The notes under the pieces: model-generated
The model's input: the letters and a program-made list of their open reading frames with translations, nothing else
What the model was told of the DNA's origin: nothing
Databases searched by the model: none
Shown: piece after piece, positions 9,879 through 47,419 of the stretch
Layout of the letters: every line of letters begins with the position of its first letter
Position numbering within the stretch: position 1 is the first letter of the stretch
Position numbers and translations under genes: made by a program
Assembly: GCA_963575745.1 (NCBI GenBank)
Contig: CAUYUJ010000242.1
Coordinates: 1 to 64,000, forward strand
Source of the DNA: Prorocentrum cordatum
Taxonomy: Eukaryota
DNA: 64,000 nt
Direction: 5' to 3'

Positions 9879-10039
9879 ATCGCACCCTGTTTGTTGATGC
9901 TGGTCTGCGTGCTGGCACGAGTGCGGGCGCTCAACTTGGGATTTCAACGTCTTTCGTCTCCGTTTCTAGCGCCGCCGTTTGTGCTCAAGCGGATAGTGCA
10001 TTGCCGGCGCGCGGCGCGGCCGGAGGCCGTGCGGACGCG

Positions 10040-19375: not shown

Positions 19376-19512
19376 CCAGAGATGGGCCCTCCTCCTCCTC
19401 CTCCTCCTCCTCCTCCTCCTCCTCCTCAGCTGCCCCTTTCGATCGAGCGATATCAGGCAGCTTCAGCGGCAGCACCCCCATCGGTCCCCTCCAGCCATCA
19501 TGTTTTGATAGA

Positions 19513-20965: not shown

Positions 20966-21337
20966 CCCGAGCGCAACTGTCCGGCCTGGAAGGCCTCCGG
21001 CGTCCGCCACTCGGACGCCCTGCCCGAGGGCCTCCTCCGCCCGCGGGGCCTCGCCGACAGGCGGCCGGCGGCGAAGCCGGCGCCGAGGAGGCCAGCGGCG
21101 CCCAGGGCAGTCGAGGGGCCGATTTTGCCCACCACCACCACCAGATGCAGGAGGAGGAGGAGGAGGAGGAGAGGGAGGAGGAGGAGGAGGAGGAGGAGAT
21201 CCGCAGCCCCTGGCTCAAGCCGTTTCCCTCCCATTTGGAGTGGTAAGGGCTCGAGGTGGCGCAGCGCCAGGTTGTTTCGCAGCTCGGAGCACCGCCCCGA
21301 CGGTCAAAGCTGCCAGCACACCGAACCGCCTGCAGTG

Positions 21338-22486
21338 ATGGGCAAGGGTGGCAGCGGCAAGGACAAGGCCAAGAAGAGCCAGGGCCAGGGGAAGGGAAAG
21401 GCACGCCCACCCCAGGCTCAGTCCATGTCGCAGGCGCCGTCATCTTTTTCGTGGACATGCCCAGGGTGCCACGCTCTAGTCAGCTTGCAACACCAATGGT
21501 GCTGGAGATGCGGCGTCCACTGGGAAGCTGAGGTGACATCGTCGGGCAGTGGGGTCTCCACACCGCAGCGCAAGGCGCAGCAGCCTACGGGCGCGGCGAG
21601 GAAGCCCAACACGTCAAACAAGCAGCAGATCCAGAAGTTGCAAGGCACGCTGGACTCTTTGAAGGCGCTGGCGGCGAAGCAGACTGGCGCAGACGAGGAG
21701 TCCACGATGGAAGCGTCCGAGGCCGTCACGGCTGTCCTGGAGAGGTTGCGTGAGGAGCGCGACAGCGAGAAGACAGTGTCCCAGCGGCAGCAGGCTCAGT
21801 TCGCCAAGCTGAACAAAGCCCAGAAGCAGCTGGAGGCCCAGACGCGTTATGTTCAGGAGCAGATGCAGGCGCTTCAGGACCTCGAGGTCAAGAAGGCGCT
21901 GCTGCAGGCCGAGGTTCAAGCAGCCGAGGCCACGCAGGCGGAGCTGGGGGACAAAGTGGCGGCCCTCAGGCTGCCGCAAGAGGCGGTGTATGACTACTAC
22001 TCAACGCCTCCAGGGCTCCCCGACCCGACGCCAGCGGGTAAAGGACAGGCCGTGGGTGCGCTCAGCCAGTTTGGGGTCGCCAACGGACAGGTGGACGCGC
22101 AGGCCTTCCTCCACAGCATGAACTTCCTCAGCACAGGGCTAGCCCCGAGTCTCATGCAGGAGCTCTGGCAGCCCATGGAGAGCTTCGCCGCGGAGATCCG
22201 TGCCCGCGGAGGCATGGCGCCTCCCGCGGAGAGCGCGGCCGCCGCCTCCAGCGCCTCACCGCAGACTGCGGAAGCAGGGCAGCCCATGGCGGCAGCTCGC
22301 GAGGAGGCTGCAGCGGCGGGGCATCGCGCTGAAGCAGATGCCCCCATGACTGCGGCGGCGCTGGCGGGCCGACGGGCTGCTGACGAGGCGCTGGCGAGCC
22401 AGGCGGACGAGAAGCTGAAGAGCGAGAGCGAGCAGGCAGCGGCTGCTGAGGCTGCGGCGCAGGCCGCAGGCCCATCGCGAGGGTAA
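21338..22486 (+). CDS. LINE-B ORF1: K/G-rich N-terminus, RanBP2-like zinc finger, coiled coil
   Basis: MGKGGSGKDK..; WTCPGC..WCWRCG; long Q/E/K heptad region. Confidence 0.8.
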   Translation: MGKGGSGKDKAKKSQGQGKGKARPPQAQSMSQAPSSFSWTCPGCHALVSLQHQWCWRCGVHWEAEVTSSGSGVSTPQRKAQQPTGAARKPNTSNKQQIQKLQGTLDSLKALAAKQTGADEESTMEASEAVTAVLERLREERDSEKTVSQRQQAQFAKLNKAQKQLEAQTRYVQEQMQALQDLEVKKALLQAEVQAAEATQAELGDKVAALRLPQEAVYDYYSTPPGLPDPTPAGKGQAVGALSQFGVANGQVDAQAFLHSMNFLSTGLAPSLMQELWQPMESFAAEIRARGGMAPPAESAAAASSASPQTAEAGQPMAAAREEAAAAGHRAEADAPMTAAALAGRRAADEALASQADEKLKSESEQAAAAEAAAQAAGPSRG

Positions 22487-22490
22487 CACC

Positions 22491-22789
22491 TTGCGGGCGG
22501 CAGCCGCCGCCGAGGGGCTGCAGGTGCTCACCGTCAACGGCAATTGCTGGACGACTGCAGCCAACCTCATCAAGCTCAGTGAGGCTCACATAGTACTGGT
22601 TCAAGAACATAAACTGCATGGTCAACGCCTTCTAGAGGCGAGGGAAGCGATGCGTAAGCTGGGTTGGAAGACGTTCTTTTCTCAGTGCGAGGTCACAACA
22701 GCCTTGGGGCGCTCGGTGGGAGTAGCCATTCTCGCCCGTGCGCATCTCGATGCCTGGAGCGACCCTCGGCAGCAAAATGATCTTGTAGC
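22491..22789 (+). pseudogene. LINE-B ORF2 N-terminus (endonuclease), interrupted
   Basis: LTVNGN, VLVQEHKL, GVAILAR. It joins in frame to 36364 when 22790-36363 is removed (NDLVA|HRLIHVYF). Confidence 0.9.
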
Positions 22790-23023
22790 TTGTATAGTCT
22801 TTTATGCTGGTAGACTGCAGGTTCAGCGTAGGGAAGTGGGGGCTTTGCCTTAGCCATTTGGGGTCCGTAGTCGTGGGCTCGAGATCGAGCCAGGACTCGG
22901 GGGTCCCGGGGGGCCGCGGGGCGGCCAAAACCGCAGCGTCCTGCACCGCCAGCTCTGGGGAGCGGGTGTGCGGACGTGGCCGGCGCTACCAGCCTCGTGG
23001 CGGGTGTGCGGGCCAGCGGTGCC

Positions 23024-25780
23024 ATGGCCGTGGGCTTCCTCGGGGCGCATGCCGTGATCTTGGCGGTTGGTGGGGCGTTCTCGGCCCAAGGGGCGATGGG
23101 TTGGTGGCTTCTTGGCCGCGCGGGGGACGCAATGTCCCCAGCGCCGGCGCCGCCATCTCAGCCCGGGCCGAAACTCCGGCCCGCGGGCGGCGGGGGGCAT
23201 GGCAAGGGGCGAGCTCCGCCCGCCAAGCCTGCGCCTGCGGGAAGGAAGGGGCGAGGGCCGCCGGCCAAACCTCCTGGGGTCACCATTACCACAACCACGA
23301 CGACGACTACGACGTCGACGACTACGACGACATCTTCGCAGCCCGGCCCGAGCCGCGAGCGCGGGGGCGAACCCGCAGTTAGCCCAGCCGCGGCCGGGCC
23401 CGCAGGGCCCATTTCCACTACGACTGGCGTCGGCCGCGCGCGCGGGAGCGGACCTTCGGGTAGCCCAGCCGCGGCCGAGCCAGCGGGCGGGTCGGGTGCC
23501 CAGGGCGGTCCCGGTAGGGAAGAGCCACGCACCCCGCCCACGCATCCTGGGAGACCCGGCGAGGCATCAGGCCAGCCGACGGGGTCCCTGGACACCTACG
23601 GGCCCGGCGAGGCAGCGCTGAGCTTCGACCCGCTGCGCTTGAGCTGGCTGGTTGCTGGCTGGTTGGCCTGCCGCGCGTTGGGCGCAGAGTTCCGACATCG
23701 CCGCATGGAGGCTGAGCTGGCCGAGAAAGGCGCCAACCTGCAGCTTTGGGCGACCGAGGCGCTCGACGCCGGGGAGAAGCTGGCCGAGGCCCGGTCGCGG
23801 TGCACTGCTCTGGAGGCCGAGCGGTCTCGTGCCGCCGAGGGAGCCGAAGCGTGGCGCCAGGCTTACGAAGAGGAGGCGACTCGCCGGCAGGAGACGGCAC
23901 GGCGACAGAGGATGGCCGAGAGGCTCGCCCAAGGGAAGAGCCAGGCGTGCGAGTACGAGCGGGCGCGCAGATTCCGTGCCGAGGAGGCCTTGGCGGGGAG
24001 CCGCGCGGACGTCGACGTCGACAACTTGTGGGCGTGGATCGACGGCCTGTTGGCATGGATCGACCGCCTGACGACGAACCTCGAGCTGGGGGCCACGATC
24101 GCCGAGAACCTGCGGGCCCGCGTCGACGAGCTCGAGCCCGGCGGGGTCGCTCCGACCGAAGGGGCCGGCGGCAGAGGAGGAAGAGGAGTGGGCGGCGGAG
24201 GCGAAGGAGCGGCGAGGGAGGAGGTCTCTCCGAGAGCGAGGATGAGGAGGCGGAGGAGGATGAGGAGGACCACTATCCAGGGGGAGCTCATTCCCGAGGA
24301 GCCCGAGGAGACCAGCCTCGGGGAGCATCGCGCCCTGGGCGACTCCGCGGCTGCCTCGGGCCTGGCGCCGGGAGCGGGCGACGATGGCGACGACGATGCG
24401 GGGGTGCCGGGAGGGTCAGAGGTCAAACTGGTCCGCGCCCACGAGGTCGTCCACGGCGCCCGGTTGCCGGCGGGTTGCTGGGGCTCCGTTGGCGCCAGCG
24501 CCCGCGCCGTCGCCGAGGCCCGCGCCGGTGCCAGCATCGGCGCCCGTGCCCCCGCCGACTCTGACACCAGGGAGTACCGCAACGGGGGGGCGCGCATGGG
24601 GTCGTGGACAGGCGCGGACGTGGAGCTCGGCGCTGTGCACCTGGGCGACGCCGGCGCCGACGACCGCACCGACACCTACGCCTCCGCCGTCGCCCGCGCT
24701 GGCCCAATCGCCTGCGCCCGCGCCCGCGCCGACGCCGACGCAATTTGCGACGCGCCCGCTGACGCCGGCGGCCGCGACTTCGACGCCTCCGCCGGCGCCA
24801 GCACTTTCGCCGCCGCCGCCGCGACCAGCGACGCCGATGCCGGAGCTGGCGCATATCGCAACGCGGCGCCTCCGCCGCCGGCTCCGGATCTTTGGCGCGG
24901 CGCTGGCCCCGAGCTGAAAGCGCGGCTGCGCCGGCGCGCCCTGCCCCTTGAGGGGGCCGGAGGCGCGCTCGCGGGGCACCGCTCTGAGCGGGCAACTGCG
25001 GAGGCGGCGGGGCGGGCGCTACCGGAGGCCAAGCAGTACTGGTTGACGGTTGCGCCCAAGACCTGGGAGGTCGCGCCGATGGATCGCGAGGAGTCCCCCC
25101 GAGAAGCCCCGGGGGCCCTGGAGTTGGGGCAGCCGCTGCTGGATGAGGCTCGCCGCCACCGCGCCGCGGGCGTGAGCGTCGCCGAGGACTTGAGGAGGGC
25201 CGCGGGGTCGGACGGGGCCGAGACGGTCGTGGAGGCCGACGAGGTTTGTGACCTGGACTGGGCCAGGCTCGGCGCCGCGGGCCCCGAAGAGGGCCCCGTT
25301 CCCAGCATTGACGCCACCACCGTCGTCGACCCCGCCGTCACCGCCTGCGCCATCGTCAGCGCCGACGCCAACGCCGACGCTGACATCGACGCCGATACAC
25401 GGGCTGGCACCGGGGCCGCCTCCTGCGACGCTAGCGCCGACGCCCCCAATGTCTCCGCCTCCGCCGCCTACAACGCCAGCGACGACGCCAGCGCGGGCGC
25501 CTACGCCGAGGCCGCCGCCGAGCCCGACGCCGGCGACCGCGCCCCCGGCTCCGACGCCTATGAGGACGTTGCCGCTTCCGCGGCCGCCAGCGCAGGCGCC
25601 AGCGCCCACGCTCCCAACGTCACCGCCGACGCCGGCGTCGGCGGCGAGCGCAGGCGCCAGCACCGACGCTATCGCCCTCACCCGCTCGGAGGCCGGCGAG
25701 GTCTGGGCCGTGCGTTGGTCCAGACCTGGCGCCAGGAGCTCCGACGTGGGACTCGGCACCCGCACCGACGCCAGCGTTGA
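23024..25780 (+). CDS. Hypothetical protein: hydrophobic N-terminal segments, P/T-rich region, coiled coil, then A/D-rich repeats
   Basis: MAVGFLGAHAVILAVGGAF..GWWLLG; LSWLVAGWLAC; coiled-coil-like MEAELAEK..LRARVDEL; NLWAWIDGLLAWIDRL. Confidence 0.45.
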   Translation: MAVGFLGAHAVILAVGGAFSAQGAMGWWLLGRAGDAMSPAPAPPSQPGPKLRPAGGGGHGKGRAPPAKPAPAGRKGRGPPAKPPGVTITTTTTTTTTSTTTTTSSQPGPSRERGGEPAVSPAAAGPAGPISTTTGVGRARGSGPSGSPAAAEPAGGSGAQGGPGREEPRTPPTHPGRPGEASGQPTGSLDTYGPGEAALSFDPLRLSWLVAGWLACRALGAEFRHRRMEAELAEKGANLQLWATEALDAGEKLAEARSRCTALEAERSRAAEGAEAWRQAYEEEATRRQETARRQRMAERLAQGKSQACEYERARRFRAEEALAGSRADVDVDNLWAWIDGLLAWIDRLTTNLELGATIAENLRARVDELEPGGVAPTEGAGGRGGRGVGGGGEGAAREEVSPRARMRRRRRMRRTTIQGELIPEEPEETSLGEHRALGDSAAASGLAPGAGDDGDDDAGVPGGSEVKLVRAHEVVHGARLPAGCWGSVGASARAVAEARAGASIGARAPADSDTREYRNGGARMGSWTGADVELGAVHLGDAGADDRTDTYASAVARAGPIACARARADADAICDAPADAGGRDFDASAGASTFAAAAATSDADAGAGAYRNAAPPPPAPDLWRGAGPELKARLRRRALPLEGAGGALAGHRSERATAEAAGRALPEAKQYWLTVAPKTWEVAPMDREESPREAPGALELGQPLLDEARRHRAAGVSVAEDLRRAAGSDGAETVVEADEVCDLDWARLGAAGPEEGPVPSIDATTVVDPAVTACAIVSADANADADIDADTRAGTGAASCDASADAPNVSASAAYNASDDASAGAYAEAAAEPDAGDRAPGSDAYEDVAASAAASAGASAHAPNVTADAGVGGERRRQHRRYRPHPLGGRRGLGRALVQTWRQELRRGTRHPHRRQR

Positions 25781-28700
25781 GGTCGGCTCCAGTATCACGG
25801 CCTACGCCAACGTCAGCGCCAGCACCGACGTCCGCGCCAACGCCGACGCCTCCGATGCCGATGCAGGCGCTACCGCCACCGCGACCGCCAACGCCGCGAC
25901 CGGCGCCGACGCTTGCACCACCGCCAACTCCGACACCGGCGCCTGTGCCAGCACGGACGACGAGGTCTGGGACTTAGAGTGGCTCCGGCTCGGCGCTGAC
26001 GCGGGCCCCGCTACCGGCATCGGCGTCAACGCAGACGACGTCAGCGGCGTCACCGCCTACGCCGAAACCAACGCCGCCGCCGACCCCAGCGGCGGCCCCG
26101 ACGACGCCGCGACGGTCGGCGTCAGCAGCGATACCATCGCAGGGATCGGGGCCGACGCCGACGCCGACAGGGACGTCTGCACGGGCACCGGCGCCCGCGC
26201 CGCCGCCAGCGTCGAGGCTGGCCCCAGCGTCAGCGACCGCGTCACCAGCACTACGCTTCCGCACGCGCGCGCTTGGCTCCGCAGGCTCTGTGCCGCTCAC
26301 GCGGGCTTCCCCGCGCGCGCGCGCTGCCCGTTCGGCTTTCTGTCGCGCTTAGCGCGACGCGCGCGTCTCGGGCTCTTCGCGGGCGCGGCTTCGCGCCGGC
26401 GGGCCGGCGCCGCGCGATCGGGGCTCGTTGGTCCCCTGCCTGAGCGAGGCCGTGGGGGCCAGCTCGGGCGCGCGCCGCGCGCTGCCGGCGGGGCTTGCCC
26501 AGCCGGGGTGCCGCAACTGCCCTCGCCGCCACCGCCGTGGGCCGCTCCGCGCCTGCCGAATCGCGAGGACTGCCGCGCGGGCGACTCCACCTCCACCACT
26601 GCTGACGCCAGCGCCGACGTCGACGCCAACGCCGCCGCCTGCTCCGATAGCGACGGCAGCGCCGACGCTGACGCGGGCGCCTACGCCGACGCTGAAACCG
26701 GCACGGAGACCGACACCGACGCCGGCATCGACGTGACCGCCTACACTGGGACCAGCGCCTGCGCTGCCGACGGCGCCCGCGCCCGCGCTGGCACTGGCGC
26801 CCGTGCCCACGCCGGCGCCGCCGCCAGCCCCAGCGCCAGCGACAGCGCCACCGGCGCCGACGTCGCGGTCGCGGGCGTGGTCGCACACCAGGGCACGCAC
26901 CATGGGGTGCACGCTGCTCAGTTCCGCATCTTAGCTGGCGCGCAGTGGAGGTTCGACCCCGCCCGGGTCCAGCCGTGCGAGGTGTCCATCACGGGTGCCC
27001 ATTCTAGGCTCGTCGAAATCGGCCAGGACGCGCAGCCGAAGGCCGACGCCGCCCATGTCCAGCAGGCCGTAGGACCTGGGACGGCTGTTCCGGCCAGGCT
27101 CGACTCCATCGTGCAGGACGTGCCGCGGAAAGCCGACCTTGCAGACTCCGACGCCAGCGCCGGCGCCGACGCCGCCGCGAGAGTCGGCGTCAGCACCGAT
27201 GCCAGCGCAGGGGCTGGGACCAACGCCGACGCCGACAGGGACGTCGGCACGGGCACCGGCGCCCACGCCGTCGCTGGCGCTGACGCTGGCCCCAGCGTCG
27301 GCGACTGCGCTACCGGCTACGCGCTTCCGCACGCACGGGCTTGGCCCCGCAGGCGCCGTGCAGCTCGCGCCGGCGTTCTCGCGTGCGCGCGCTGCCAGTT
27401 CTGCTTTCCGTCGCGGCAAGCGCGGCGCGCGCGTCTCGCGCCCATCGCGGGCGCGGCTTCGCGCCGGCGGGCCGGCGCCGTGCGGTTGGGTCGCGTTTGC
27501 CCCCCGCCTGAGCGAGGCCGTGGGGGCCAGCTCAGGCGCGCGCCGCACGCTGCCGGCAGGGCCTGCCCAGCCGGGGCGTCGCAGTTGCCCTCGCCGCCGC
27601 CGCTGCAGGCCGCTCCGCGCCTGCCGAGCTGCGAGGGCTGCCGCGAGGGCGACTCCGCCTCCGCCACCGCCGACGCCAGCGCCGACGTCGACGGCCCGTG
27701 GAGGGCCGCGGGGACGGACAGGGCCGAGACGGATGTGGAGGCCGACGAGGTTTGGGACATGGACTGGGCCAGGCTCGGCGCCGCGGGCCCCGACGGGGGC
27801 CCCGCTCCCAGCGCCGACGCCGCCACCGTCGTCGACACCGTCGTCACCGCCTGCGCCAACATCAGCGCCTCCTACGACGCCAGCGTCGACGCCCCCACCG
27901 TCCCCGCCTGCACCGACATCGACGCCGGCGACGGCGCCAGCGCCGACGCCTACGCCCGCGCCACCGCTCCCAGCGTCACCGCCGATGTCGGCATCAACGC
28001 CCTCGGGTCCAGGGCTCGCGCGGGCGCCGTCGCCTACTCGGCTGCCAGCGCAGGCGCCAGCCCCGGCGCTATCGCCCACGCCGAGGTCTGGGCCAGCGAG
28101 GTTTGGGCCATGGATTGGTCCAGGCTTGGCACCGGTTTTTCCGTCGTGGGATCCGGCACCGGTGCCGACGCCAGCGTTGAGGTCGGCCCCAGCATCCCGG
28201 CCTGCGCCAACATCAGCACCAGCACCGACACCCGCGCCGAAGCCGGCGCCTCCGATGCCGCTGCAGGCGCTGTCGGCGACGCCGCCTACGCCGAAATCAA
28301 CGCCAGCCCCGATGCCAGCACCGGCGCCGACGCCGCCGCGAGAGCCGGCGTCAGCATCGATACCAACGCGGGGGCTGGGACTAACGCCGGCGCCGACAGA
28401 GATCTCAGCACGGGCATCGGCCGCGCGGCTCGTGCGGGCGTTCTTGCGCGCACGCGCTGCCAGTTCCATTTTCGGTCACGCTTAGCGCGCGACGCGAGTT
28501 TGGCGCCCTTCGCGGGCGCGGCTTCGCGCCGGCGGGCCGGCGCCGCGCGGCTGGGTCGCGTTTGCCCCCTGCCTGAGCGAGGCCGTGGAGGCCAGCTCAG
28601 GCGCGCGCCGCGCGCTGCCGACGGGGCTGGCCCAGCCTGGGCGTCGCAGCGGCCCTCGCTGCCACCGCTGCATGCCGCTCCGCGCCTGCCCAGTTGCGAG

Positions 28701-31700
28701 GGCTGCCGCGAGGGCGACCCCGCCTCCGCCACCGCCGACGTCGACGCCGACGGCGCCGCCTATGCCGACAGCGACGCCAGCGGCGACGCCAGCGCCGACG
28801 CTGACGCAGGCGCCTGCGCCGACGCCGAGACCAGTGCAGAGACCAGCACCGACGCCGACGTCGGCACGACCGTCTACACTGGAACCGGCGCCCGCACCGC
28901 CGACAACGCCCGCGCTGGCACTGGCGTCCGCGCCTCCGCCAGCGCCACCGCCGGCCCCGGCGCCAGCGACGGCGCCCCCGACGCCGACGGCGCGACCGTG
29001 GGCGTAGTCGCACACCGAGGCACGCACCACGAGGCGGGCGTCGCTCGGTTCAGCTTCGTGGCTGCACGTACCGCCCAGCTGGCGTTGGTCATGCCGGCGG
29101 GGCTTAGCCGCGAGGGTACGAGCCTGAGGGGCGACGTTCCAGCGGCTGGGTTACTGGTGGCGGAGGACCTCACCGTTCGCATACCTTCGGGTCACGTGGA
29201 GGATTGCGCGCGCGCCCTGGCGAGGCGTGGAGCCGGGCCCTCTGTCAAGGGCACGCAGGTGCTCGGCAGCGCGTGGGTGCCGACAGGCACGCTGACGCCC
29301 ATCAGCGCACTCGCATTCCGAAGCGCGCCTGGGCTTTGCGGCACGCCGGTATTCGAGAGCGTGCCCCAGCCCAACTTCGAGGGCATGGCCGGGCTCCACG
29401 GCAGACCCCATGGACTGTGTTGTGATTGGATTGGCCGAGGGGCGCCCCCTACCACGTCCTCTTCGGGACCATCGGCGGACCCGAAGGAGGAGGCGTGCCG
29501 GGGTGGCTCAAAAGCGACCCGATGTGCGCCAAGATTCGGCATCGGGAGGCGACGGCGGGCGGGCAGCGGCTGCAGTGGCACCTACAGCGGCGCCTCGACC
29601 CGACGCGCGCCAAGACTCGGCATCGGGAGGCGACGGCGGGCGGGCAGCGGCTGCAATGGCACCTACAGCGGCGCCTACCGCGGCGCCGACGGCCGCGCTG
29701 GCTACGGGCGCGTCGACGGCTTCACCAACAGCGGCGCCGGTCGCATCGACGGCTTCACCGACAGCGGCGGCGACGGCGCCAGTCGCGCCAACCGTGGCAC
29801 TGACGGCTGCGCCGATAACATCACCGACAGTGGGGACGGCCGCGCCGAGGACATCACCGACTGCGGCGCCGCCGGAGCCAACAGCCGCACCGGCCGTTGC
29901 GCCGCCAGCGGCGTCGAGGGCGGCACTGATCGGCGCCCCGACAGCCACGCCCACGGCAGCGCCGACGGCGGCGCCCTTTGCCGTTCCGACAACTGCGGCA
30001 CCGATAGCTTCGCCGACAGCAGCCCCAACAGCCTCGGCAGCGTCGACGGCGGCACTGACTGCCGCTCCGACAGCTGCGGCCCCAACAGCCACTCAGGCGG
30101 CACCGGCTGCCGCTCCGACGGCTGCGGAGTCCATTGCCGCACCGGCCGTTGCGCCGTCAGCGGCGTCGAGGGCGGCACCGATTGGCGCCCCGACCGCGGC
30201 GCCGACAGCACCGCAGGCAGCGGCGCCGACGGTATCACCGAGAGCGGCGCCGACGGCCCCAATAGTCGCTCCGACAGCTGCGTCGTCGGCGGCGTCGGCG
30301 GCAGCACCCGCCGCCGCTCCGACAACGGCGGCCCCGACGGCCCCGCCGGCGGCTGGGCCGGCGGCGGCGCCGACTGCCGCCCCGACGGCTGCGGCACTGA
30401 CAGCCTGGCCGACGGCTGCGCCACTAGCCCTGGCGGCGTCGACGGCAGCGCCTACTGCCGTTCCGGCGGCTGCGGCCCCGACAGCCGCGCTGGCGGCTGC
30501 GCCTCCAGTTGCGTCGGCTGCCACCCCGACTGCGGCGTCGACGGTTTCGCCGACAGCTGCGCTGCCGCCGGCCGCGTCGACGGCCCCGCCGACGGCTGCG
30601 CCGACGGCGGCGCCGACAGCCGCCCCGACCGCGGCGCTTGCGGCCACGCCTGCAGGGGCGCCGGCGGCATCACCGACAGCAGCGCCGAGGGCACCGACAG
30701 CATCGACGACAGCATCGACGACAGCTGCGCCGACGTCCGCACCTGCAGCTTCGCCGGCGGCCCCGCTAACTGCAGCACCGACACCCGCGCCGTCTGCGGC
30801 ATCGTCAGCCCCGCCGACAGCTGCGCCGTCTGCATCATCGACAGCTGCGCCGACACCCGTGCCCACGGCTTCACCGTCAGTGACGCTGTCAGTTACATCA
30901 CCCAGGGCACCGACCCCGCCTCCGAGGACGTGGCGCACGCGTGCGCCCTGGTGCCCGGCATCGCGCCGACGCGGGGCGGGAAGCCCACCGCGGCGGCCCC
31001 GCCCAGCGCGGCGCGACACCCCCCCGTCGGCCTCGACAACGGCGGCGCCAACCGCGGCGTCGGCGGCGGCATCGACCGCGGCACTGGCCTTGCCCTCGAT
31101 GTCTGGGTGAGGACCCCAAGCGTGCCCGGCGTGGTCCCCGAGGCCGTAGCGGCCAGCATCATCGCCAACATCGACGGCGGCGCTGACACCGGTACCCGCT
31201 CTGGCACGCACGTCGACGCGAAGGCCTTGCTCTTCTTGGGCAGGCTGGTGCCTGGTGTGGTCGCGCTCAGGGACATGCACGGACCCTGGAGCGCCCGGGC
31301 GCTCCCCGACGTGCGGGCCCTCTTTTGCACCCGGGCGCTCTCGCTTGACAGCACGCCGGTGTTCATGCGCGCCCCGATGCTCGTGCTCGATGGCCCGTCG
31401 ACGCTGATGTATTGCGACAAGCGCGACTTCTCCTTGGCCAGGTCATCCCCGCCGACGACCGAGTTCACGGGCAAGCGAATGTTCGACTGCCTGCCGGTCG
31501 CAACGCGTCTACACCTACCTGATCACGCGTCCCCTGGCACGCCCAACCTCGGCGGCCGTGGGCCAGCGTGCGTACCTGGCCGAGACGGCTCCGGAGATTT
31601 TGGCCTGGATCGCGGTGGAAAGGGCTCGACTTGGCCCAGTTGCGAGGGGATCAGCTCGAGGAGCGGAACCCCAGCGGCGGGTCTACCCTTGATCCACTGC

Positions 31701-34700
31701 GGGCGGGGGCTCACAGGCGCGCCGGTGCTCAACGGTGCACGCGTGCTTGGTGGCGGGGCTGTGCCCCCCGGCGCGCTGGGACGCAGGGGCGCGCTCGCGT
31801 CCACGCGCGCGCTCCTACTCCTCGGCTCGCCCGAGGTGCAGATCATGCTGGTGCTCGACGGCATGCGGGTGCTCCTGGGCTTACCGGTGTCCCACAGCGC
31901 CTTGGCGTTCCTGGACATGCTGGGCGTGCCCCGCCGTGTGCTGGTACTCCCAGTGCGGTCGTGCTTGAAGGAGGCGTTCTCTGATTGGGTCATCCACGAC
32001 AACCCACCGTCTGCTGCGGGCCCTGGCCCGGCCGGGCCTTTCCGCGGGGGGACCAGCCTTAGGGGCGAGGTTCACGCGGGAGGGGCGTTGCTGGTTGAGG
32101 GCCAGGGCGCCGCTTGGTCAAGCCGCGTGGGGACAAGCCTCAGGGGCGAAGTGCCAGCGGCGACCCTGCCCGGCTTAGTGCGACTTTCGGCCGACAGCCT
32201 CGCCGATAGTGGCGCCAACAGCGGCGCTGGCGGCGGCGTCGACGACGGCGCCGACAGCCCCGCCCACAGCAGCGTCGACAGCATCACCGACGGCCGCATT
32301 GAGGGCCGCACCACCAGTTTCGCCGCGATCTGCGTCAACCGCGGCATCGACTGCCCAGCGAGGCCGACGGCGACCGTAGAGGGTAGCGACTGCCACGTCG
32401 GCGGCTGCGCCTCCAGTGACGTCGGCTGCCGCCCCGACTGCGGCGTCGACAGTTTCGCCGACAGCTGCGCTGCCGCCAGCTGCGCCGACGGCCCCGCCGA
32501 CGGCTGCGCCGACAGCGGCGCCGACAGCCGCCCCGACCGCGGCGCATGCAGCTACACCTGCAGGGGCGCCGACGGCATCACCGACAGCGGCGCCGACGGC
32601 ACCGACAGCCGCTCCGACAACTGCGGCACCGGCAGCAGACCCGCCAGTGGCGACGACTGCCGCGCGTACAGCGGCGCCGACGGCGTTACCGACGGCGACG
32701 GTTGCAACGACAGGTACGCCCACCGCGGGACCGACAGCCTTGCCGAAATCCGCTCCGGCAGCGGCGCCGTCTGCGACAAGACGGGCACCTGGCACAGTCC
32801 GATGGGCGAGCTTTCGGCCTTCATGTTTGCGATGTACGGTCCGATAGGGGAGCAACCGGCCTCCATGGTCACGGCCGCGGCGACGTGCGACGGCCTCACC
32901 GACCACCTCGTCGACAGCCGCACCAGCAGCTGCGCCGACGCTGGCGTCAGCAGCCCCGCCGGCTGCGGCGCGGACAGCCGCGCCAACCGTTGCCCCGACA
33001 GCATCGCCGACAGCTGCGCTGGCGGTATCGCCGACAGCTGCACCGACGCCCGCACCTACAGCTCCGCCGGCGGCTCTGCCAACTGCAGCACCGACACCCG
33101 CGCCGTCTGCAGCACCGGCAGCCTCGCCGACCGCTGCGCCGACTGCGTCGCTGACAGCTGCACCGACACCCGCGCCCACGGCTTCACCGCCAGCACCGCC
33201 AACGGCGGCACCGACGCCTGCGATTGCTGCGGCACCGGCAGCCGCCGCGCCGATAGCGGCGCCGACGGCGGCGTCGATCACGGCACCGATTGCGGCACCG
33301 ACAACCGCGCCGACGGCGTCACTGGCGTCTCCGCCAACCGCGGCATTGGCAGGGCAGCCGTCGTGGACAGCGCCGATGCGAGCGTGAGGCCACTGGCGAT
33401 CGAGCCCGGGCCGGACGCCGAGTGCGAGCTGGTCGGCAGCGGTGACACGGCGTTCGACGTCGCGAAGGCTTGCGGCCTCTCGGTTGGGAACGCTCCGGTG
33501 GAGGGCGGCCTTGTCGCTCACGTTGCGAAGGTGAGGCAGCGGGTCAAGGCCCGGGGTGCCTATGGCACGCGCCCGAGCGACGGGGCTGGCAGCTACAGAC
33601 GCAGCGGCACCAACTGCAGCTACGCCGGCCGCGGCCCCGATAGCTGCGACGACCGTGGCGCTGACCGCCTTGCCTACAGGTACGCCGACGGCTATGCCTG
33701 CGGCGCTGACGGCCGAGCTGACCGCGGCACAGTGGGCAGCCGCGACGACGTCGGCAGTTGCGACGGCATCGGCAGGGACAGTGGCGCAGCCTGCGGCGCG
33801 GACAGCCGCGCCGACTGCGGCGCCGACGGCTGCGCCAACCACGGCGCCGACTGTCGCGCCGACCGCGAGCCCTACGAGGGCACCAGCGGGCTGATCGAAT
33901 GGCCCGCCGACAGGCTCACCGGCTGCGGCACCGACAGCGGCGCCAATGGCTGCAGCCACGCTGTCTGCGGCACCGGCGGCCGCGCCGACGGCTACCTCGA
34001 CAGCCACGCCGACGACAGCCCCGTCAGTTACGCCGACAATGGCACCGACTGCTGCACCGACCTCGGCGCTGACCGCGGCGCCGACGGCGGCGCCCACGAG
34101 GCAACCCGCAAGGGCGTGCCCGTGGGGGGCGTCTCGGGCGGCGGGCGCGGCCGCGCCGACCGCGGCACCTACGGTGGCACTGACGGCCACCCCGCCAGCG
34201 GCGTTAACCGCTGCGCTGGCTGCGGCACCGACCGCCGCGCAGACTGCGGCACCAGCAGGCGCGCCGACAGCATCCTCGACGGGGGCGCCGACAGCGGCCC
34301 CTACTGCAGCGCTGATTTCGGTACCGGCCGCGGCGCCGACAGCGGCGCTGGCGCGGTGAACTTGAAGGGCGCGCTCGTGGAGGGCTCCTCGGATGACTGG
34401 CACGTTCTGGACAGCGGCCCAAAGGCTGCCGAGGAGATCGAGGCTGCGCTGGCGGGTCATAAGACGGCTGGTACGCCGACGGCTGCATCGACGGCCTCGC
34501 TGACAGCTGCGCCGACCACGGCACCGACAGCTGCAATGACAGATGCGCCGACCGCTGTACCAGCCGAGGCGCCAACGGCGGCACCGACAGCGGCGCTGGC
34601 GTCTGCGCCGGCGGCCTCCAGGCAGCCCAGACCTCACGGGCGGTGCACGCCAGAGGCAGCTGCCGCCGCGGCCCCGGGGGGCGCCACCGTACTCGCACCG

Positions 34701-35090
34701 GCCGGGGGCGCACGGCTCGCACCAGCCTCAGGGGCGGGCGTTGGCCCACCCATGTGCGACGGACGGCGCGCGCCAGCGGCGGCTGCGGCCGCGGCCCCGA
34801 GGGATGCCCGCCCGTCCTCGCCCGCCAGGGGCGCCCGGCGCGCACCAGCCTCCGGGTCAGCAGCGGTCCCGCCCATGTGGGACGGGCGTCTCGCGCCAGA
34901 GGCGGTGGCTACCGCGGCCCCGGGGGATGCGGCACTGACAGCCACGGCGACCTCGGCGACAACGGGGACATCGACTAGCTTACGGCTTCGCCGATTGCTG
35001 CACCAACGGCAGCGCCGATGGGTCGTCCGTCTGTTGCCCTGGCCGCGGCACAGACAACCGCCTGGACAGCGTCGACGACGGTTGCACTAG
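25248..35090 (+). CDS. 3280-codon low-complexity ORF (A/D/G/C-rich repeats), probably a frameshifted continuation of the 23024 ORF
   Basis: No stop for 9.8 kb. It shares the EVWxxxWxRLG motif with the upstream ORF and is built from GCCGAC-rich internal duplications. Coding status is uncertain. Confidence 0.35.
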   Translation: MTWTGPGSAPRAPKRAPFPALTPPPSSTPPSPPAPSSAPTPTPTLTSTPIHGLAPGPPPATLAPTPPMSPPPPPTTPATTPARAPTPRPPPSPTPATAPPAPTPMRTLPLPRPPAQAPAPTLPTSPPTPASAASAGASTDAIALTRSEAGEVWAVRWSRPGARSSDVGLGTRTDASVEVGSSITAYANVSASTDVRANADASDADAGATATATANAATGADACTTANSDTGACASTDDEVWDLEWLRLGADAGPATGIGVNADDVSGVTAYAETNAAADPSGGPDDAATVGVSSDTIAGIGADADADRDVCTGTGARAAASVEAGPSVSDRVTSTTLPHARAWLRRLCAAHAGFPARARCPFGFLSRLARRARLGLFAGAASRRRAGAARSGLVGPLPERGRGGQLGRAPRAAGGACPAGVPQLPSPPPPWAAPRLPNREDCRAGDSTSTTADASADVDANAAACSDSDGSADADAGAYADAETGTETDTDAGIDVTAYTGTSACAADGARARAGTGARAHAGAAASPSASDSATGADVAVAGVVAHQGTHHGVHAAQFRILAGAQWRFDPARVQPCEVSITGAHSRLVEIGQDAQPKADAAHVQQAVGPGTAVPARLDSIVQDVPRKADLADSDASAGADAAARVGVSTDASAGAGTNADADRDVGTGTGAHAVAGADAGPSVGDCATGYALPHARAWPRRRRAARAGVLACARCQFCFPSRQARRARLAPIAGAASRRRAGAVRLGRVCPPPERGRGGQLRRAPHAAGRACPAGASQLPSPPPLQAAPRLPSCEGCREGDSASATADASADVDGPWRAAGTDRAETDVEADEVWDMDWARLGAAGPDGGPAPSADAATVVDTVVTACANISASYDASVDAPTVPACTDIDAGDGASADAYARATAPSVTADVGINALGSRARAGAVAYSAASAGASPGAIAHAEVWASEVWAMDWSRLGTGFSVVGSGTGADASVEVGPSIPACANISTSTDTRAEAGASDAAAGAVGDAAYAEINASPDASTGADAAARAGVSIDTNAGAGTNAGADRDLSTGIGRAARAGVLARTRCQFHFRSRLARDASLAPFAGAASRRRAGAARLGRVCPLPERGRGGQLRRAPRAADGAGPAWASQRPSLPPLHAAPRLPSCEGCREGDPASATADVDADGAAYADSDASGDASADADAGACADAETSAETSTDADVGTTVYTGTGARTADNARAGTGVRASASATAGPGASDGAPDADGATVGVVAHRGTHHEAGVARFSFVAARTAQLALVMPAGLSREGTSLRGDVPAAGLLVAEDLTVRIPSGHVEDCARALARRGAGPSVKGTQVLGSAWVPTGTLTPISALAFRSAPGLCGTPVFESVPQPNFEGMAGLHGRPHGLCCDWIGRGAPPTTSSSGPSADPKEEACRGGSKATRCAPRFGIGRRRRAGSGCSGTYSGASTRRAPRLGIGRRRRAGSGCNGTYSGAYRGADGRAGYGRVDGFTNSGAGRIDGFTDSGGDGASRANRGTDGCADNITDSGDGRAEDITDCGAAGANSRTGRCAASGVEGGTDRRPDSHAHGSADGGALCRSDNCGTDSFADSSPNSLGSVDGGTDCRSDSCGPNSHSGGTGCRSDGCGVHCRTGRCAVSGVEGGTDWRPDRGADSTAGSGADGITESGADGPNSRSDSCVVGGVGGSTRRRSDNGGPDGPAGGWAGGGADCRPDGCGTDSLADGCATSPGGVDGSAYCRSGGCGPDSRAGGCASSCVGCHPDCGVDGFADSCAAAGRVDGPADGCADGGADSRPDRGACGHACRGAGGITDSSAEGTDSIDDSIDDSCADVRTCSFAGGPANCSTDTRAVCGIVSPADSCAVCIIDSCADTRAHGFTVSDAVSYITQGTDPASEDVAHACALVPGIAPTRGGKPTAAAPPSAARHPPVGLDNGGANRGVGGGIDRGTGLALDVWVRTPSVPGVVPEAVAASIIANIDGGADTGTRSGTHVDAKALLFLGRLVPGVVALRDMHGPWSARALPDVRALFCTRALSLDSTPVFMRAPMLVLDGPSTLMYCDKRDFSLARSSPPTTEFTGKRMFDCLPVATRLHLPDHASPGTPNLGGRGPACVPGRDGSGDFGLDRGGKGSTWPSCEGISSRSGTPAAGLPLIHCGRGLTGAPVLNGARVLGGGAVPPGALGRRGALASTRALLLLGSPEVQIMLVLDGMRVLLGLPVSHSALAFLDMLGVPRRVLVLPVRSCLKEAFSDWVIHDNPPSAAGPGPAGPFRGGTSLRGEVHAGGALLVEGQGAAWSSRVGTSLRGEVPAATLPGLVRLSADSLADSGANSGAGGGVDDGADSPAHSSVDSITDGRIEGRTTSFAAICVNRGIDCPARPTATVEGSDCHVGGCASSDVGCRPDCGVDSFADSCAAASCADGPADGCADSGADSRPDRGACSYTCRGADGITDSGADGTDSRSDNCGTGSRPASGDDCRAYSGADGVTDGDGCNDRYAHRGTDSLAEIRSGSGAVCDKTGTWHSPMGELSAFMFAMYGPIGEQPASMVTAAATCDGLTDHLVDSRTSSCADAGVSSPAGCGADSRANRCPDSIADSCAGGIADSCTDARTYSSAGGSANCSTDTRAVCSTGSLADRCADCVADSCTDTRAHGFTASTANGGTDACDCCGTGSRRADSGADGGVDHGTDCGTDNRADGVTGVSANRGIGRAAVVDSADASVRPLAIEPGPDAECELVGSGDTAFDVAKACGLSVGNAPVEGGLVAHVAKVRQRVKARGAYGTRPSDGAGSYRRSGTNCSYAGRGPDSCDDRGADRLAYRYADGYACGADGRADRGTVGSRDDVGSCDGIGRDSGAACGADSRADCGADGCANHGADCRADREPYEGTSGLIEWPADRLTGCGTDSGANGCSHAVCGTGGRADGYLDSHADDSPVSYADNGTDCCTDLGADRGADGGAHEATRKGVPVGGVSGGGRGRADRGTYGGTDGHPASGVNRCAGCGTDRRADCGTSRRADSILDGGADSGPYCSADFGTGRGADSGAGAVNLKGALVEGSSDDWHVLDSGPKAAEEIEAALAGHKTAGTPTAASTASLTAAPTTAPTAAMTDAPTAVPAEAPTAAPTAALASAPAASRQPRPHGRCTPEAAAAAAPGGATVLAPAGGARLAPASGAGVGPPMCDGRRAPAAAAAAAPRDARPSSPARGARRAPASGSAAVPPMWDGRLAPEAVATAAPGDAALTATATSATTGTSTSLRLRRLLHQRQRRWVVRLLPWPRHRQPPGQRRRRLH

Positions 35091-35776
35091 CCGCTGCACC
35101 TGCAGATGCACGGTTCGGTTCGCCGATGGCTGAACTGGTCACGACACCGACGGCTACTCCGACAGCGGCGCCGACGGTCGCGCCGACATCGGCGTCGACA
35201 GCGGCCCTGGCCGCCACGGCGACCACGGTGCTGACTGCGGCGGCGACTGGCGCGCCGACGAAGGGCGCGACGACGGGGGCGAGCGGATCGACCTACGTTG
35301 GCATGTTCGCCGGCAGCACTGGCATCGAGGGCCGCGCGCTGTCCGCCACACAGGAGCCGCCCGACGACGAGGATTAGAAGGAGGAGGACCGGGGGGAGCG
35401 ACGGGCTGCTCGGGCCTCGTGGCGTCCACTGGGCTGCAGCCAGCTTGCGCCTCCAGCTCGCGCGTGCGCTTTCGCATGCGCGCGCTCGTTCTTTGCGTGT
35501 ACTGAGTCGCGTCCTGCGCGACGCGCGCGGCTAGCGCTTTTCGCGTGCGCGATTCCGCGCCGGCGGGCCGGCGACGCGCGGCCCTGGGGAGCGTTTAGCC
35601 CCCCCGCCTGGGCGAGGCCGTGGGGCCGGCTCGGGCGCGCGTTGCACGCCGCCGGCAGGGCGCTGCCCAGCCGGGGCGGCCTGGCGCCCGCTCCAGGAAG
35701 GCCTCAGGCTTGCAGGCCAGTGGTCGCGCGCGCTCGGGCGCCTTTCGCCCGCGCGCGGCTGCGTTCTTTTGGTTTT

Positions 35777-36363
35777 GGCCGTGCGGCAGCAGGGCGTGCC
35801 AGAACGCGCGCGCGCCACGGTGCGCGTGCGCGGGCGGCGCGGCGTCCCGCCGGACCCGCGCCATCAGGGTGGTGCGCGTGGCCGCTTTGCCATTGAAAGA
35901 GTTCATCATTGTCCTTCTCCCGTCCTCGTCCTCCTTCCTCCTCCTCTTCCTCCTTCTCCGTTTAGTGCACGCGCGCCTTCGCTTAACTTGTATAGTCTGT
36001 TATGCTGGTAGACTGCAGGTTCAGCGTAGGGAAGTGGGGGCTTTGCCTTAGCCATTTGGGGTCCGTAGTCGTGGGCTCGAGATCGAGCCAGGACTCGGGG
36101 GCCCACCCACCCCGCTTTGCTCCCTGTGCACCCAGCTCCGCTCGGCTCTCGGGCCGTGCGGCAGCAGGGCGTGCCAGAACGCGCGCGCGCCACGGTGCGC
36201 GTGCGCGGGCGGCGCGGCGCCCCGCCGGACCCGCGCCATCAGGGTGGTGCGCGTGGCCGCTTTGCCATTGAAAGAGTTCATCATTGTCCTTCTCCCGTCC
36301 TCGTCCTCCTTCCTCCTCCTCTTCCTCCTTCTCCTTTTTAGTGCACGCGTGCCTTCGCTTAAC
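35777..36363 (+). repeat. Right-end repeat block B1-A2-50 bp spacer-B2
   Basis: B1 (211 bp) and B2 (212 bp) differ at about 4 positions. The B1|A2 junction CTTAAC|TTGTATAG equals the element's right end joined to its left end. Confidence 0.92.
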
Positions 36364-39300
36364 GCATCGTTTGATTCACGTATACTTCCGCAGCAAAGAG
36401 CTTGGCATCATGTCTCTCTACTGTGCGTATTTCCACGACAGCGAGGGGCTGTCGCGCAGGAATGTACAGATGGCGCAGATTCTGGGGCATGACATTTTGC
36501 AGCGTTCTCTTCCTTTTGTGATCGGCGCAGACTTCGACGTGGAACCGTCTCTGGTCCGTGAAGCCTTCGCTCCGCACAAGTGGAATGGCCAGATTCCGAT
36601 TCCAGATCCGATGGTCACTTGTTGCAATACAACGCCTGGCAAGTGCTATGATTTCTTTATAGTCAGCAAGCCGATGTTACATGCCATTCAGAATGTCAGC
36701 ACGGACACGAATGCGGACATTTTCCCGCACCGCCCTGTTACAGTACGTTTTCGCACTCGAGTTGATGACATCAGGGTCCAGAGGATGACTCAGTTTGCGA
36801 AGCTGCCCGTGGACCTCCCCATAGGCCCCGCCCCGCTGGCGCCCGACTATGAGGATCTGCAGGACAGGCTTGAGTACCTCCTGAGGCCCATGAAGACCGA
36901 AGGTGGATATCGGTTACCGCAGGGAGGGGAAGTGGATCAACTTCAGAGCGAACTTGACGAAGTATATAAGAGCTGGTGTTCTAAAGCGTGGGGGGAACTT
37001 GAGGGAACCCTGCAACAGACCCCTGAAGGTCTCAAAGGAGGTCAGCCGTATGATACTTCGGAGGTGCCTCTTGGGGAGCTGTTGTGTACTCGGAGGAACC
37101 CCGCGAGAAGCCCATATAGAGCGCTGCACTGGTTAGGACGCAGATGCCACGAAATCGCAAGTCTGCAGTCAGGTAAATATTATACTCACGCTAACTACTT
37201 CACTAAGCTCCTCAAGGCCACCTACAGGGCTACAGATACTGGAGGCATTTTCAGGTACCACTACCCTGGAGGACGCGAGGCCTGGATGGTCCTACTGAAG
37301 GCGGCTCTTGGATGTTTTTGTGTACACTACGAGATCCTGTATCTAGATGTGATAGTGCGCACTTTCAAAGCCCTGCAGCAGTTCGCAGATTACGTCGCCG
37401 CTCGGAGCCTGCCGCGAGAGAAGTCGGACAGGGCAGCCAAGTGGAGCGATTGGTGCACGGGGGCCCTCGCTGGTGGAGCCAAGTGGGCGCATGCGTACAC
37501 AAAGGTGGCAAGTGATCGCAGACAGGACCTCCACCCCACTGGTGATGGGTACCACACGTCGTGTCTTACTCGTCAATTGGAGGAGGAGGAGTTAAAGTGG
37601 AGCAAAGCTTGGGGGGAGGATGCCATTGAGGAGAAGGAGGTGTCGTGGCCGAAAGACATGGTGATCCCGAACCCCCCGAGTATTGAGGAGATTCGTGCCC
37701 TAAGCAGTTCGTTTAAGAGAGCCACTATTGCTGTGGATGGGTTCCATCCTCGACACTATATGCTGCTTTGTGACGAGGCGCTAGGTGTTTTCCAGCAGGT
37801 TATGGCTGCTATGACGGTCGCGGGCACGGTGCCCACCTGGATGAGGAAGCTGGTCCTCGCCCTTTTTCGCAAGCCAGTCTCGGGGAGGAGGCCGATCGGG
37901 TTCTTCCAGAGTGCGGTGAGGATGGTATCCAGGTGGCATTCCAGAGATTGAAAGAGATGGGAGCACAAGTTGAAGGATTGGGGAGTGTTCAGCATGAGGG
38001 CAGGCAGGTCACCGCGTGACACAGTGTGGCGGCAGCAGGTTCGAGGGGACTTGGCGACCGCAGAACGTAAGCACGTGCTCAGCCTTCTTGCAGACCCCAC
38101 ACAGTGCTACGAGCACGTGCAGTACCCCCAGCTTGTACAGAGTGCGATTGATTGGCAGTATCCGCTATACACCTTAAGGTTTGCACTGCACCCGTATGCG
38201 CGGGAGCGGATACTCAATTTAGATGGAGTGGTGTCCCAGGGGATTTTACCACATCAAGCGATTGTTGCTGGAAGCAGTACGGCTACTTTTGAAATCAAGG
38301 TTTATTGCATTCCCACGATTAACAGGTTCCTGGAGCAGGGGTTTTCGACGGAGTTGGCGGTCCATGTTGATGATGTTAGCCTAAATGAGAGATGTGCAGA
38401 CATGATCTCGTGCGTCAGGAACTTGGCAGCCGCCCTTGCCTTTCTGATATACCTCCTCTCTCAGCTCTTCAATCTGACTTTCGCGATGCAGAAGTTCTGT
38501 ATCACAGGCACCAGCGAGGATCTGGTGCGCATTGCCAAGCTGAATCTCGCCCAGTATGCTGGCCAGTATGATGTCTCGCTGGTCAATGTAGGCGTGAATT
38601 TCAACCCAGGCAAACATAAGAGCGTCAAACATGCGAAGCAGAACAGGAGGGAGAGGTGGATGAAGCAATCGGGGAGGATCAATAAGATTATGAGTTTGAA
38701 AAATCCGAAACGCTCCAGGGCAACGATATGGTTTTGTGGGGTCAAGCCTGCTACTACCTACGGCGAAGAGGTGGTGGGCTGGACCCCCCGAGAGATTCGA
38801 CGCCTGCGGACGCAGGCGGCAGGCGTGCTAGGACTTTCGAGCTGTGGAGCAGATCTCAACTTGGCCTTCGCGCTCGAACCACAACGAGACCCTTTGAAGC
38901 ACGCCTGTGCAACTATGACACGCTATGCTAAGGAGTTCTGGCTGGCCCCTGATGTGATACATAGACCTGGAGACTGCCTCGCCATAGGGGAGCTCCATAG
39001 GATCCTCAACGTGGTTCGAGAGTACCAGGACCGACGTGAATTGGCTTCTTGGGACACAAGATCGTGGGGACCTGTGGGGGATATGCTTCTCTGGATGGGT
39101 AAGGCGTCTTGGAGTATTCGTGGACCAGGTATGTTTACTATGCGGTCAGGGGCCCCTTGTGTGCTCACGGAGATCCCCTACGGTCAGGTCTCTAACTACT
39201 TCTTCAAGGATCTAGGTAAGGAGTTGGTGGCCGAGAGCATGCAGAAGTACCTGAACTCTCGTGAACACCCTAGAGCACATGAGATGTTGGAGGGAGGTCT

Positions 39301-47390: not shown

Positions 47391-47419
47391 CGCCCCTTGC
47401 CGAGCCTGCAGCCCTCGTG

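Follow-up and report, generated by a model that had tools for sequence, protein, structure and literature searches.

What kind of element can occupy 13.6 kb in the middle of a host gene without leaving a footprint and without encoding any recognizable enzyme of its own? This question is raised by contig CAUYUJ010000242.1 of the dinoflagellate Prorocentrum cordatum (assembly GCA_963575745.1), of which the first 64,000 nt of the forward strand were analyzed (hereafter, the window). Within it, a 13,574-bp insert (positions 22790–36363) interrupts what looks like the second open reading frame (ORF2) of a long interspersed nuclear element (LINE). We give an even chance to the reading that the insert is a non-autonomous element with the split-direct-repeat (SDR) architecture of the DIRS order (PAT/Toc, Ngaro and VIPER-like elements), moved in trans. 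Three features speak for this reading in combination, namely, end sequences that differ from each other, an internal copy of their join, and footprint-free insertion. What would be new here is an SDR element of unusual size that lacks enzymes and whose interior is taken up by a giant orphan ORF.

The insert is organized in the order A1–interior–B1–A2–50 bp–B2 (Table 1). The two A copies differ by a single mismatch, and the B copies are 98.1% identical over 212 columns, with three substitutions and one indel. The element begins with TTGTAT and finishes with CTTAAC, and the sequence across the B1|A2 boundary is that of the end of B2 followed by the start of A1; in other words, the element contains an internal copy of its own joined termini. 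The terminal unit consisting of A2, the 50-bp spacer, and B2 amounts to 376 bp. No further copies of A or B were detected by BLASTN in the 64-kb window, where only the CT-rich tract of B matches simple repeats, and the spacer (36102–36151) has no other match within the window. CT-rich simple repeats resembling the 47-nt tract of B are located at 12131–12450, 19174–19439, 62663–63213, and elsewhere.

The insertion point lies between C and G, and the empty site reads ..GTAGC|GCATCG... The codon across the insertion consists of GC (22788–22789) and G (36364), so that deletion of 13,574 bp rejoins both host frames (GC|G). On the right flank, the frame from 36365 is open for 528 codons up to an in-frame TGA (37949–37951), followed by 923 more codons. 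The dinucleotide GC is common to both flanks (22788–22789 and 36364–36365). If it were a 2-bp target-site duplication (TSD), the LINE sequence downstream would be read in a frame that meets its first stop after 41 codons and has three stops in 100 codons, and zero duplication is thus the sole reading that keeps the host frame. Both copies of A are preceded by a C, which leaves an ambiguity of one base in the position of the boundary. The layout A1 (114 bp)...B1 (211 bp)–A2–50 bp–B2, the reproduction of the joined ends at B1|A2, and the restoration of the GC|G codon without TSD upon deletion of 22790–36363 had all been put forward in the original prediction, which is borne out on each of these points. 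That unrelated GC-rich repeats were joined into the LINE during assembly is hardly credible: the interior is indeed highly repetitive, GC-rich and hard to assemble, and the published P. cordatum assembly is described as fragmented (preprint 10.1101/2022.07.25.501386), but a chimeric join would neither begin and end at matching repeat boundaries nor bring back, with base precision, a host frame of 650 codons.

Compared with the internal repeats of the family, the insertion is young, although this comparison yields no absolute date. The A and B pairs together display four substitutions and one indel in 326 bp, whereas the internal 1,068-bp units differ by 13–20%, and the interrupted host ORF2 has a single stop. 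The repeat pairs are 98–99% identical, and the earlier suggestion of a recent insertion is consistent with this measure.

The termini and the insertion site speak to several other classes of elements. Long terminal repeat (LTR) retrotransposons have the same LTR at both ends, TG..CA termini and a TSD of 4–6 bp; in the present element, A on the left and B on the right differ in sequence and no TSD is present, and this class was rejected. The hallmarks of a LINE-mediated retrocopy of an mRNA are a 3′ poly(A) and a TSD, joined in dinoflagellates by a 5′ relic of the spliced leader. This origin was rejected as well, given that the insert lacks both a poly(A) at 36363 and a TSD, and that a spliced-leader-like 15-mer lies inside A and not at its start. 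Helitrons begin with 5′-TC and end with 3′-CTRR, insert between A and T, carry a 3′ hairpin and encode Rep and helicase domains. A Helitron-like rolling circle that read through a weak terminator in B1 into a neighboring short copy, yielding A–interior–B–A–x–B, would account for the missing TSD and for a 10-nt palindrome, GCACGCGTGC, that stops 12 nt short of the end of B2 (the B1 version is imperfect). However, a palindrome of this length would not form a stable hairpin, the ends TTGTAT and CTTAAC depart from the Helitron termini, the site is C/G rather than A/T, and Pfam detected neither a Rep nor a helicase domain in the interior ORFs. The Helitron reading is largely refuted by the termini, and we regard it as very improbable. 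TSD and Helitron-type ends, two of the observations that the original prediction had named as speaking against it, are absent from this copy. An Rfam scan of 22000–37000 returned only far sub-threshold matches.

The spliced-leader-like stretch occurs at 22852–22866 in A1 and at 36050–36064 in A2, where it matches 13 of 15 bases of the leader motif. Sites outside the element, at about 11326–11370 (plus strand) and 54265–54206 (minus strand), score slightly above that in A, and nowhere in the window does the motif occur within three mismatches. A spliced-leader origin of repeat A was therefore rejected, its best alignment being equaled or exceeded elsewhere in the window. These stretches may have arisen by chance or may be remnants of the leaders of retroposed transcripts.

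We searched the interior for enzymes by running Pfam on 109 ORFs: 44 of the 46 of at least 150 aa and 65 of the 67 of 70–149 aa. The two larger ORFs set aside were a minus-strand ORF overlapping the flank and the ORF of the host LINE, for which a separate scan was run; the two smaller ones lie mostly in the flanks. No match to a reverse transcriptase (RT), RNase H, methyltransferase, tyrosine recombinase (Phage_integrase), transposase, Rep, or helicase was found in any of the 109 ORFs, as expected from the original prediction, which saw no RT, RNase H or recombinase motif inside the element. Among the ORFs of at least 150 aa, all matches were of low complexity and fell below threshold (Gly-zipper, PT repeat). 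The negative result for RT is softer than it appears, because the RT in the flanking LINE escapes Pfam as well and because the RTs of Symbiodinium DIRS elements are said to fit the Pfam seeds poorly (PMC5890265). However, the interior consists mostly of repeats, so that little unique sequence remains for a set comprising RT, RNase H, and tyrosine recombinase (YR).

How, then, could such an element move? Repeats in the order A1–B1–A2–B2 are described as defining the PAT/Toc/Kangaroo, Ngaro, and VIPER elements (PMC4157794, PMC3266345, PMC6681497). In the mechanism published for the DIRS order, the cDNA ends are joined on the internal junction, and the resulting circle recombines with the target without TSD (PMC3266345, PMC7192593). 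The P. cordatum element displays the split direct repeats, the internal junction copy, and the lack of a TSD, but encodes neither a YR nor, as far as Pfam detects in the 109 ORFs, RT and RNase H. Having no recombinase, it is at most a non-autonomous DIRS derivative, and the lack of its own RT, RNase H, methyltransferase, and YR makes it most likely a non-autonomous element moved in trans by an autonomous YR retroelement. Under this scenario, an autonomous YR retroelement recognizing the same A and B ends would supply the enzymes. A transcript running from A1 to B2 would be reverse-transcribed, as in the published DIRS model, and the internal B1|A2 join would serve as the template or bridge that brings the termini of B2 and A1 together into a circle. 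The YR would then exchange strands between the B|A junction and the target, with no target bases gained or lost. Recombination at the B|A junction would result in a footprint-free insertion of the kind seen in the GC|G codon of the LINE.

In place of enzymes, the interior contains two overlapping plus-strand frames and their repeats. The stop-to-stop frame of ORF1 (22871–25780) includes no stops, whereas 9.9 would be expected. An AlphaFold2 (AF2) model of its product places helices at residues 2–101 and 105–143, with a predicted local distance difference test (pLDDT) score of 92–97 over residues 1–90, followed by disorder. The N-terminus of ORF1 is thus predicted to form a long α-helical, coiled-coil-like domain; ORF1 matches no Pfam family, and a gag-like role for it would be a guess from this model. 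The ORF2 frame of the element likewise has no stops, against 19.1 expected from the local codon-position composition, and the lowest number in 500 shuffles was 8; stop-free duplicated units inflate this contrast somewhat. A strong coding-like signal on the plus strand follows one frame at about 23,400–25,300 and another at 25,200–34,400. The G+C content at third codon positions is 0.76–0.93 over most of the length of ORF2, with C as the last base of up to 91% of codons. ORF2 is kept open beyond what composition explains. It matches no Pfam family at threshold, and all periods reported by Tandem Repeats Finder in the interior are multiples of three. For block 31047–32168, a single relative, a near-identical fragment of 95 aa, was found among 1.84 billion representatives; the unique ORF2 block gave no usable match in the ESM Atlas, and its AF2 model was unusable (mean pLDDT 30.6). 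Rather than enzymatic cargo, the interior comprises a helical ORF1 domain of about 140 residues and a giant repetitive orphan frame. The cargo ORFs of the original prediction are present in that long ORFs are carried, among them the 3,298 codons of ORF2, but they are not of an enzymatic kind.

Table 1 Features of the element and of the interrupted host LINE, in window coordinates. P0004 is a paralogous predicted protein of P. cordatum
Feature	Coordinates	Strand	Remarks
Host LINE ORF2, N-terminal part of AP-endonuclease-like domain	22419..22789	+	Open for 123 codons, cut by the insertion
A1, 5′ terminal repeat	22790..22903	+	114 bp; 113/114 identical to A2; begins at the break in the host LINE frame
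5′ leader	22904..23704	+	Unique in window; stop-free in the ORF1 frame from 22871
ORF1	23705..25780	+	Met (MEAELAEKG) to stop; first ~143 residues predicted helical, rest disordered/low-complexity
ORF2 frame	25194..35090	+	3,298 codons without stop; offset +1 relative to ORF1, overlap ~590 nt
Tandem units, about three	25993..29064	+	1,065–1,068 bp (multiples of 3), 80–87% alike; self-BLAST
Periodic block I	29515..30880	+	Degenerate 12-nt period (4-codon, x-x-D-x-like)
Unique block shared with P0004	31221..32030	+	Holds two apparent GT-AG introns
Periodic block II	32187..33345	+	Degenerate 12-nt period; 32387–32609 is 91% identical to 30479–30701
Asp/Gly/Ala/Arg-rich ORF2 segment	33528..34355	+	95–96% protein identity with paralogue P0004
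123-bp repeat, 2.4 copies	34636..34930	+	
3′ internal region	35091..35776	+	35447–35678 resembles part of every 1,068-bp unit (78–81% similarity)
B1, internal copy of 3′ repeat	35777..35987	+	211 bp; holds the 47-nt CT-rich tract
A2, internal copy of 5′ repeat	35988..36101	+	B1/A2 boundary is a circle-junction-like join of the termini
Spacer A2/B2	36102..36151	+	50 bp, unique
B2, 3′ terminal repeat	36152..36363	+	212 bp
Host LINE ORF2, continued	36364..40723	+	Rest of endonuclease, RT-like region, zf-RVT, RNase H-like tail

A search with ORF1 retrieved five relatives (E values of 3e-98 to 3e-44), all labeled 'unnamed protein product [Prorocentrum cordatum]' and encoded on different contigs. 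With P. cordatum as the source of the nearest proteins, a Chlamydomonas origin of the window was rejected. The start Met (23705) is common to all five and the N-terminal 145 aa are conserved, with 141 of 145 residues identical in P0004. The latter protein (1,261 aa) is collinear with the plus strand of the element over 23705–35692; the alignment falls into 14 blocks, which together have 902 identities in 945 residues and skip the repetitive stretches; across the Asp/Gly/Ala/Arg-rich segment the identity is 95% over 280 aa (blocks of 193/201 and 74/77). The last ~260 residues of P0004 are without match in the window. P0004 is named 'DDE-1 domain-containing protein' in UniRef, and Pfam finds no DDE or other family in it at E ≤ 1. 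P0005–P0008, on four different contigs, combine the ORF1 helix (~80% identity) with later segments of the element and carry an actin fragment where the present element has 24181–24900. PF00022 was detected in the two of them that were scanned, P0005 (E 3e-43) and P0008 (E 7e-55), and all four bear a precomputed PF00022 label. This pattern suggests that the sub-lineage of P0005–P0008 captured an actin fragment and then multiplied. Judged from these predicted proteins, the interior is part of a multi-copy, evolving P. cordatum family; membership of the relatives is established at the interior (protein) level, and the ends are seen in one copy only.

Comparison with P0004 also implies two apparent GT-AG introns, at 31497–31566 (70 nt) and 31639–31835 (197 nt), separated by a mini-exon of 72 nt (31567–31638) that is read in another frame in the P0004 model. 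ORF2 thus probably contains introns, with calls that depend on the predicted gene model of a paralogue. The ORF2 frame is open straight through both apparent introns, which total 267 nt, a multiple of three. Another reading is that the insert is not a transposon. A piece of a multi-copy tandem gene array, with A–gene–B as the unit and B|A as the intergenic join, might have entered the LINE when a break was repaired or when extrachromosomal circular DNA integrated, and the gene-like character of the interior (strong codon-position bias, no stops, conserved start Met, GT-AG gaps), the annotation of the relatives as ordinary gene models and the tandem gene arrays that are described as usual in dinoflagellates (PMC11453091) would all agree with it. 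We nonetheless consider this quite unlikely. A random break in an array or circle would give one simple terminal redundancy and not two units ending at the identical B|A point on both sides of the insert, the join shows no filler, deletion, or microhomology beyond 1 nt, and the actin-bearing sub-lineage on four contigs appears dispersed rather than arrayed.

For a DIRS-type element, the same dispersal of the actin-bearing sub-lineage over four contigs fits amplification. Several observations weigh on the other side. Only one copy with ends was seen, and neither a recurrent A..BA.B unit nor the link to a YR is visible. No YR or RT was found in the element and no YR elsewhere in the window, the only RTs being those of a Copia-type element and of the host LINE; the insensitivity of Pfam in this genome limits what can be made of this, and a longer relative of ORF1 carrying RT- or YR-type domains was not found in the protein search, which is weak evidence. 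Two canonical GT-AG introns (70 and 197 nt) have apparently been retained in the interior, which is awkward for an RNA intermediate because an RNA-copied element is expected to lose its introns. At the crossover, the circle junction and the target share a single nucleotide (C) and not the identical trinucleotide of DIRS1-like elements, a 3-bp identity of circle junction and target being described for the DIRS1-like and not for the SDR elements (PMC3266345). Finally, a split-repeat layout is also reported on a Gypsy element of Klebsormidium (PMC5890265). The YR-retroelement-type layout of the original prediction thus matches the published SDR hallmarks but is not exclusive to YR elements, and the dependence on YR enzymes is what we infer from it.

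Retained introns, if real, are easier to reconcile with movement as DNA. They and the matching unit ends fit a site-specific element that moves at the DNA level, with no RNA step, a rather unlikely scenario in our estimation. The insert would then be a head-to-tail arrangement of a 13.2-kb A–interior–B unit and a 376-bp mini unit, A–50 bp–B. With a single copy in view, such a tandem, which the original prediction had named as its alternative, looks the same as the standard layout. A circular DNA would have recombined at B|A with the target, or via A with a resident mini copy to yield A–interior–B–A–x–B, using a recombinase, YR-like or other, encoded elsewhere. The long and the mini unit start and end at the same points, there is no TSD, GT-AG introns are apparently retained, and stand-alone mini versions of an SDR element are known from SIRE and VIPER (PMC6681497). 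Against this, neither a free mini copy in the window nor a recombinase (in the interior ORFs or in the window) was found, the introns are known only from a predicted model, and the layout is standard for retro-type SDR elements, so that nothing demands a DNA-only route.

Comparison with known systems places the element closest to DIRS-type elements while setting it apart from each of them. Reportedly, TOC1 of the green alga Chlamydomonas reinhardtii, as described by Day and colleagues in 1988, begins on the left with part of the repeat and continues with a complete B+A repeat, after which a short unique spacer leads to the B that closes the right side, and is inserted without TSD; it is said to be about 5.7 kb long and without a long ORF. 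TOC1 and the P. cordatum element are alike in this layout and lack of a TSD, as well as in having no enzymes of their own, but the latter differs in its 13.6 kb and its open frame of 3,298 codons. TOC1, called a non-autonomous DIRS element in the literature (PMC9940879), is an analogue rather than a relative, because the hosts are a green alga and a dinoflagellate; the comparison with TOC1 in the original prediction stands to this extent. Elements of the A-coding-B-A-B type with recombinases are already known from another dinoflagellate: SymbioDIRS of Symbiodinium are described as 'A-coding region-B-A-B' and as encoding a tyrosine recombinase (de Mendoza et al. 2018, PMC5890265). By this published description, they share with our element the dinoflagellate host and the repeat layout, but they encode Pol (RT, RNase H, Dnmt3) and YR, in place of which the P. 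cordatum element has an orphan repetitive ORF.

VIPER of trypanosomes is reported to have the SDR order A1 ... B1 A2 B2, and SIRE to correspond to A2 + ~30 bp + B2 of VIPER (PMC6681497). As described, SIRE resembles the 376-bp A2–50 bp–B2 unit; VIPER encodes YR, RT, and RNase H, whereas the present element encodes none, and there is no free mini unit in the window. The PAT-like, Kangaroo, and Ngaro elements share with ours the A1–B1–A2–B2 repeats and the lack of target duplication, but are defined by RT and RNase H (with or without methyltransferase) plus YR, none of which was recognized here (PMC4157794, PMC3266345). The TR-GAG non-autonomous retrotransposons of plants are described as having terminal repeats and a single gag ORF without pol (PMC4350172). 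The helical ORF1 domain predicted here might, as a guess, play a gag role in a similar way; TR-GAGs have ordinary LTRs and TSDs and are <4 kb in size, and the element here differs in all three respects (PMC4350172). For non-autonomous YR retroelements, a limited phrase search of the literature returned just the Chlamydomonas genome paper in which TOC1 is mentioned; SIRE came to light separately.

Turning to the host, a 524-codon ORF (20912–22486) overlaps the start of the interrupted ORF2 of about 1,576 codons. The left piece of the latter matches Exo_endo_phos (profile positions 22–88 of 225, E 0.029, below threshold), with the match ending at the junction, and the right part matches zf-RVT (20.8 bits) and RNase_H (E 0.11), both below the Pfam threshold. 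From these sub-threshold matches and from the order of endonuclease, RT, and RNase H motifs that we read by eye and compared with the LINE order, the host ORF resembles that of a LINE. When the right-hand half of the endonuclease was used as a protein query (545 candidates scored), no homologue spanning the junction emerged, PDB sequence searches with both endonuclease halves and the RT part gave chance matches or nothing, and an NCBIfam search of the host LINE gave no match. The insert contrasts sharply with its host in composition, with a G+C content of 0.739, compared to 0.615 in the left and 0.555 in the right host part, and an observed/expected CpG ratio of 1.17, compared to 0.83 (19183–22789) and 0.74 (36364–40723); the host LINE is mildly CpG-depleted and the insert is not. 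The P. cordatum genome is reported to have a G+C content of 59.7% (preprint 10.1101/2022.07.25.501386; PMC11453091), with which the flanks here, at 0.55–0.62, agree. The target contains the hexamer CTTGTA 8 bp before the insertion point (22782–22797), and it recurs across B|A (C|TTGTA, 35987–35995). A crossover at CTTGTA was rejected as the route of integration, since it would not reproduce the observed junctions; its recurrence may reflect target similarity or chance.

Elsewhere in the window, a second endonuclease-like ORF, about 2 kb upstream of the LINE ORF2, spans 19183–20700 on the plus strand (Exo_endo_phos below cutoff, E 0.0011). Its distance from the interrupted ORF2 precludes an alignment, and it is probably a fragment of another LINE. 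The coding region of a Copia-type LTR retrotransposon spans 1754–11197 on the plus strand and comprises a 2,092-codon ORF with a weak rve match (19.4 bits) followed by RVT_2 (59.7 bits, above cutoff), and then a zinc-knuckle ORF. The region 47000–54000 is a G+C-richer block (0.63–0.68) in which numerous long ORFs overlap on the two strands, none of them matching a Pfam family.

Little is understood about tyrosine-recombinase retroelements, which are rare, and their non-autonomous forms are barely described. The present copy offers both junctions, an internal copy of the circle junction, and a reconstructable empty site, and such a young, clean insertion provides a handle on an autonomous partner and on the recombination site in a dinoflagellate. 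Should it turn out to be an ordinary non-autonomous DIRS-type element, the result would be a useful annotation and no surprise. A more far-reaching possibility, which we consider unlikely, is a footprint-free split-repeat family of dinoflagellates that carries and amplifies genes instead of enzymes and, if the introns are real and copies spread with them, moves as DNA via B|A. It would then be a TSD-less, site-specific DNA element merely resembling a DIRS retroelement, and would represent an undescribed route of gene duplication in the very large, paralogue-rich genomes of dinoflagellates. Its load at this locus would be an orphan ORF of about 3,300–4,000 codons, kept open and with its introns retained, whereas that of the sister lineage would be a captured actin fragment, spread to at least four loci. 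If the family does ferry a long ORF under selection and, at other loci, a fragment of actin, it would bear on the build-up of the enormous paralogue loads of dinoflagellate genomes.

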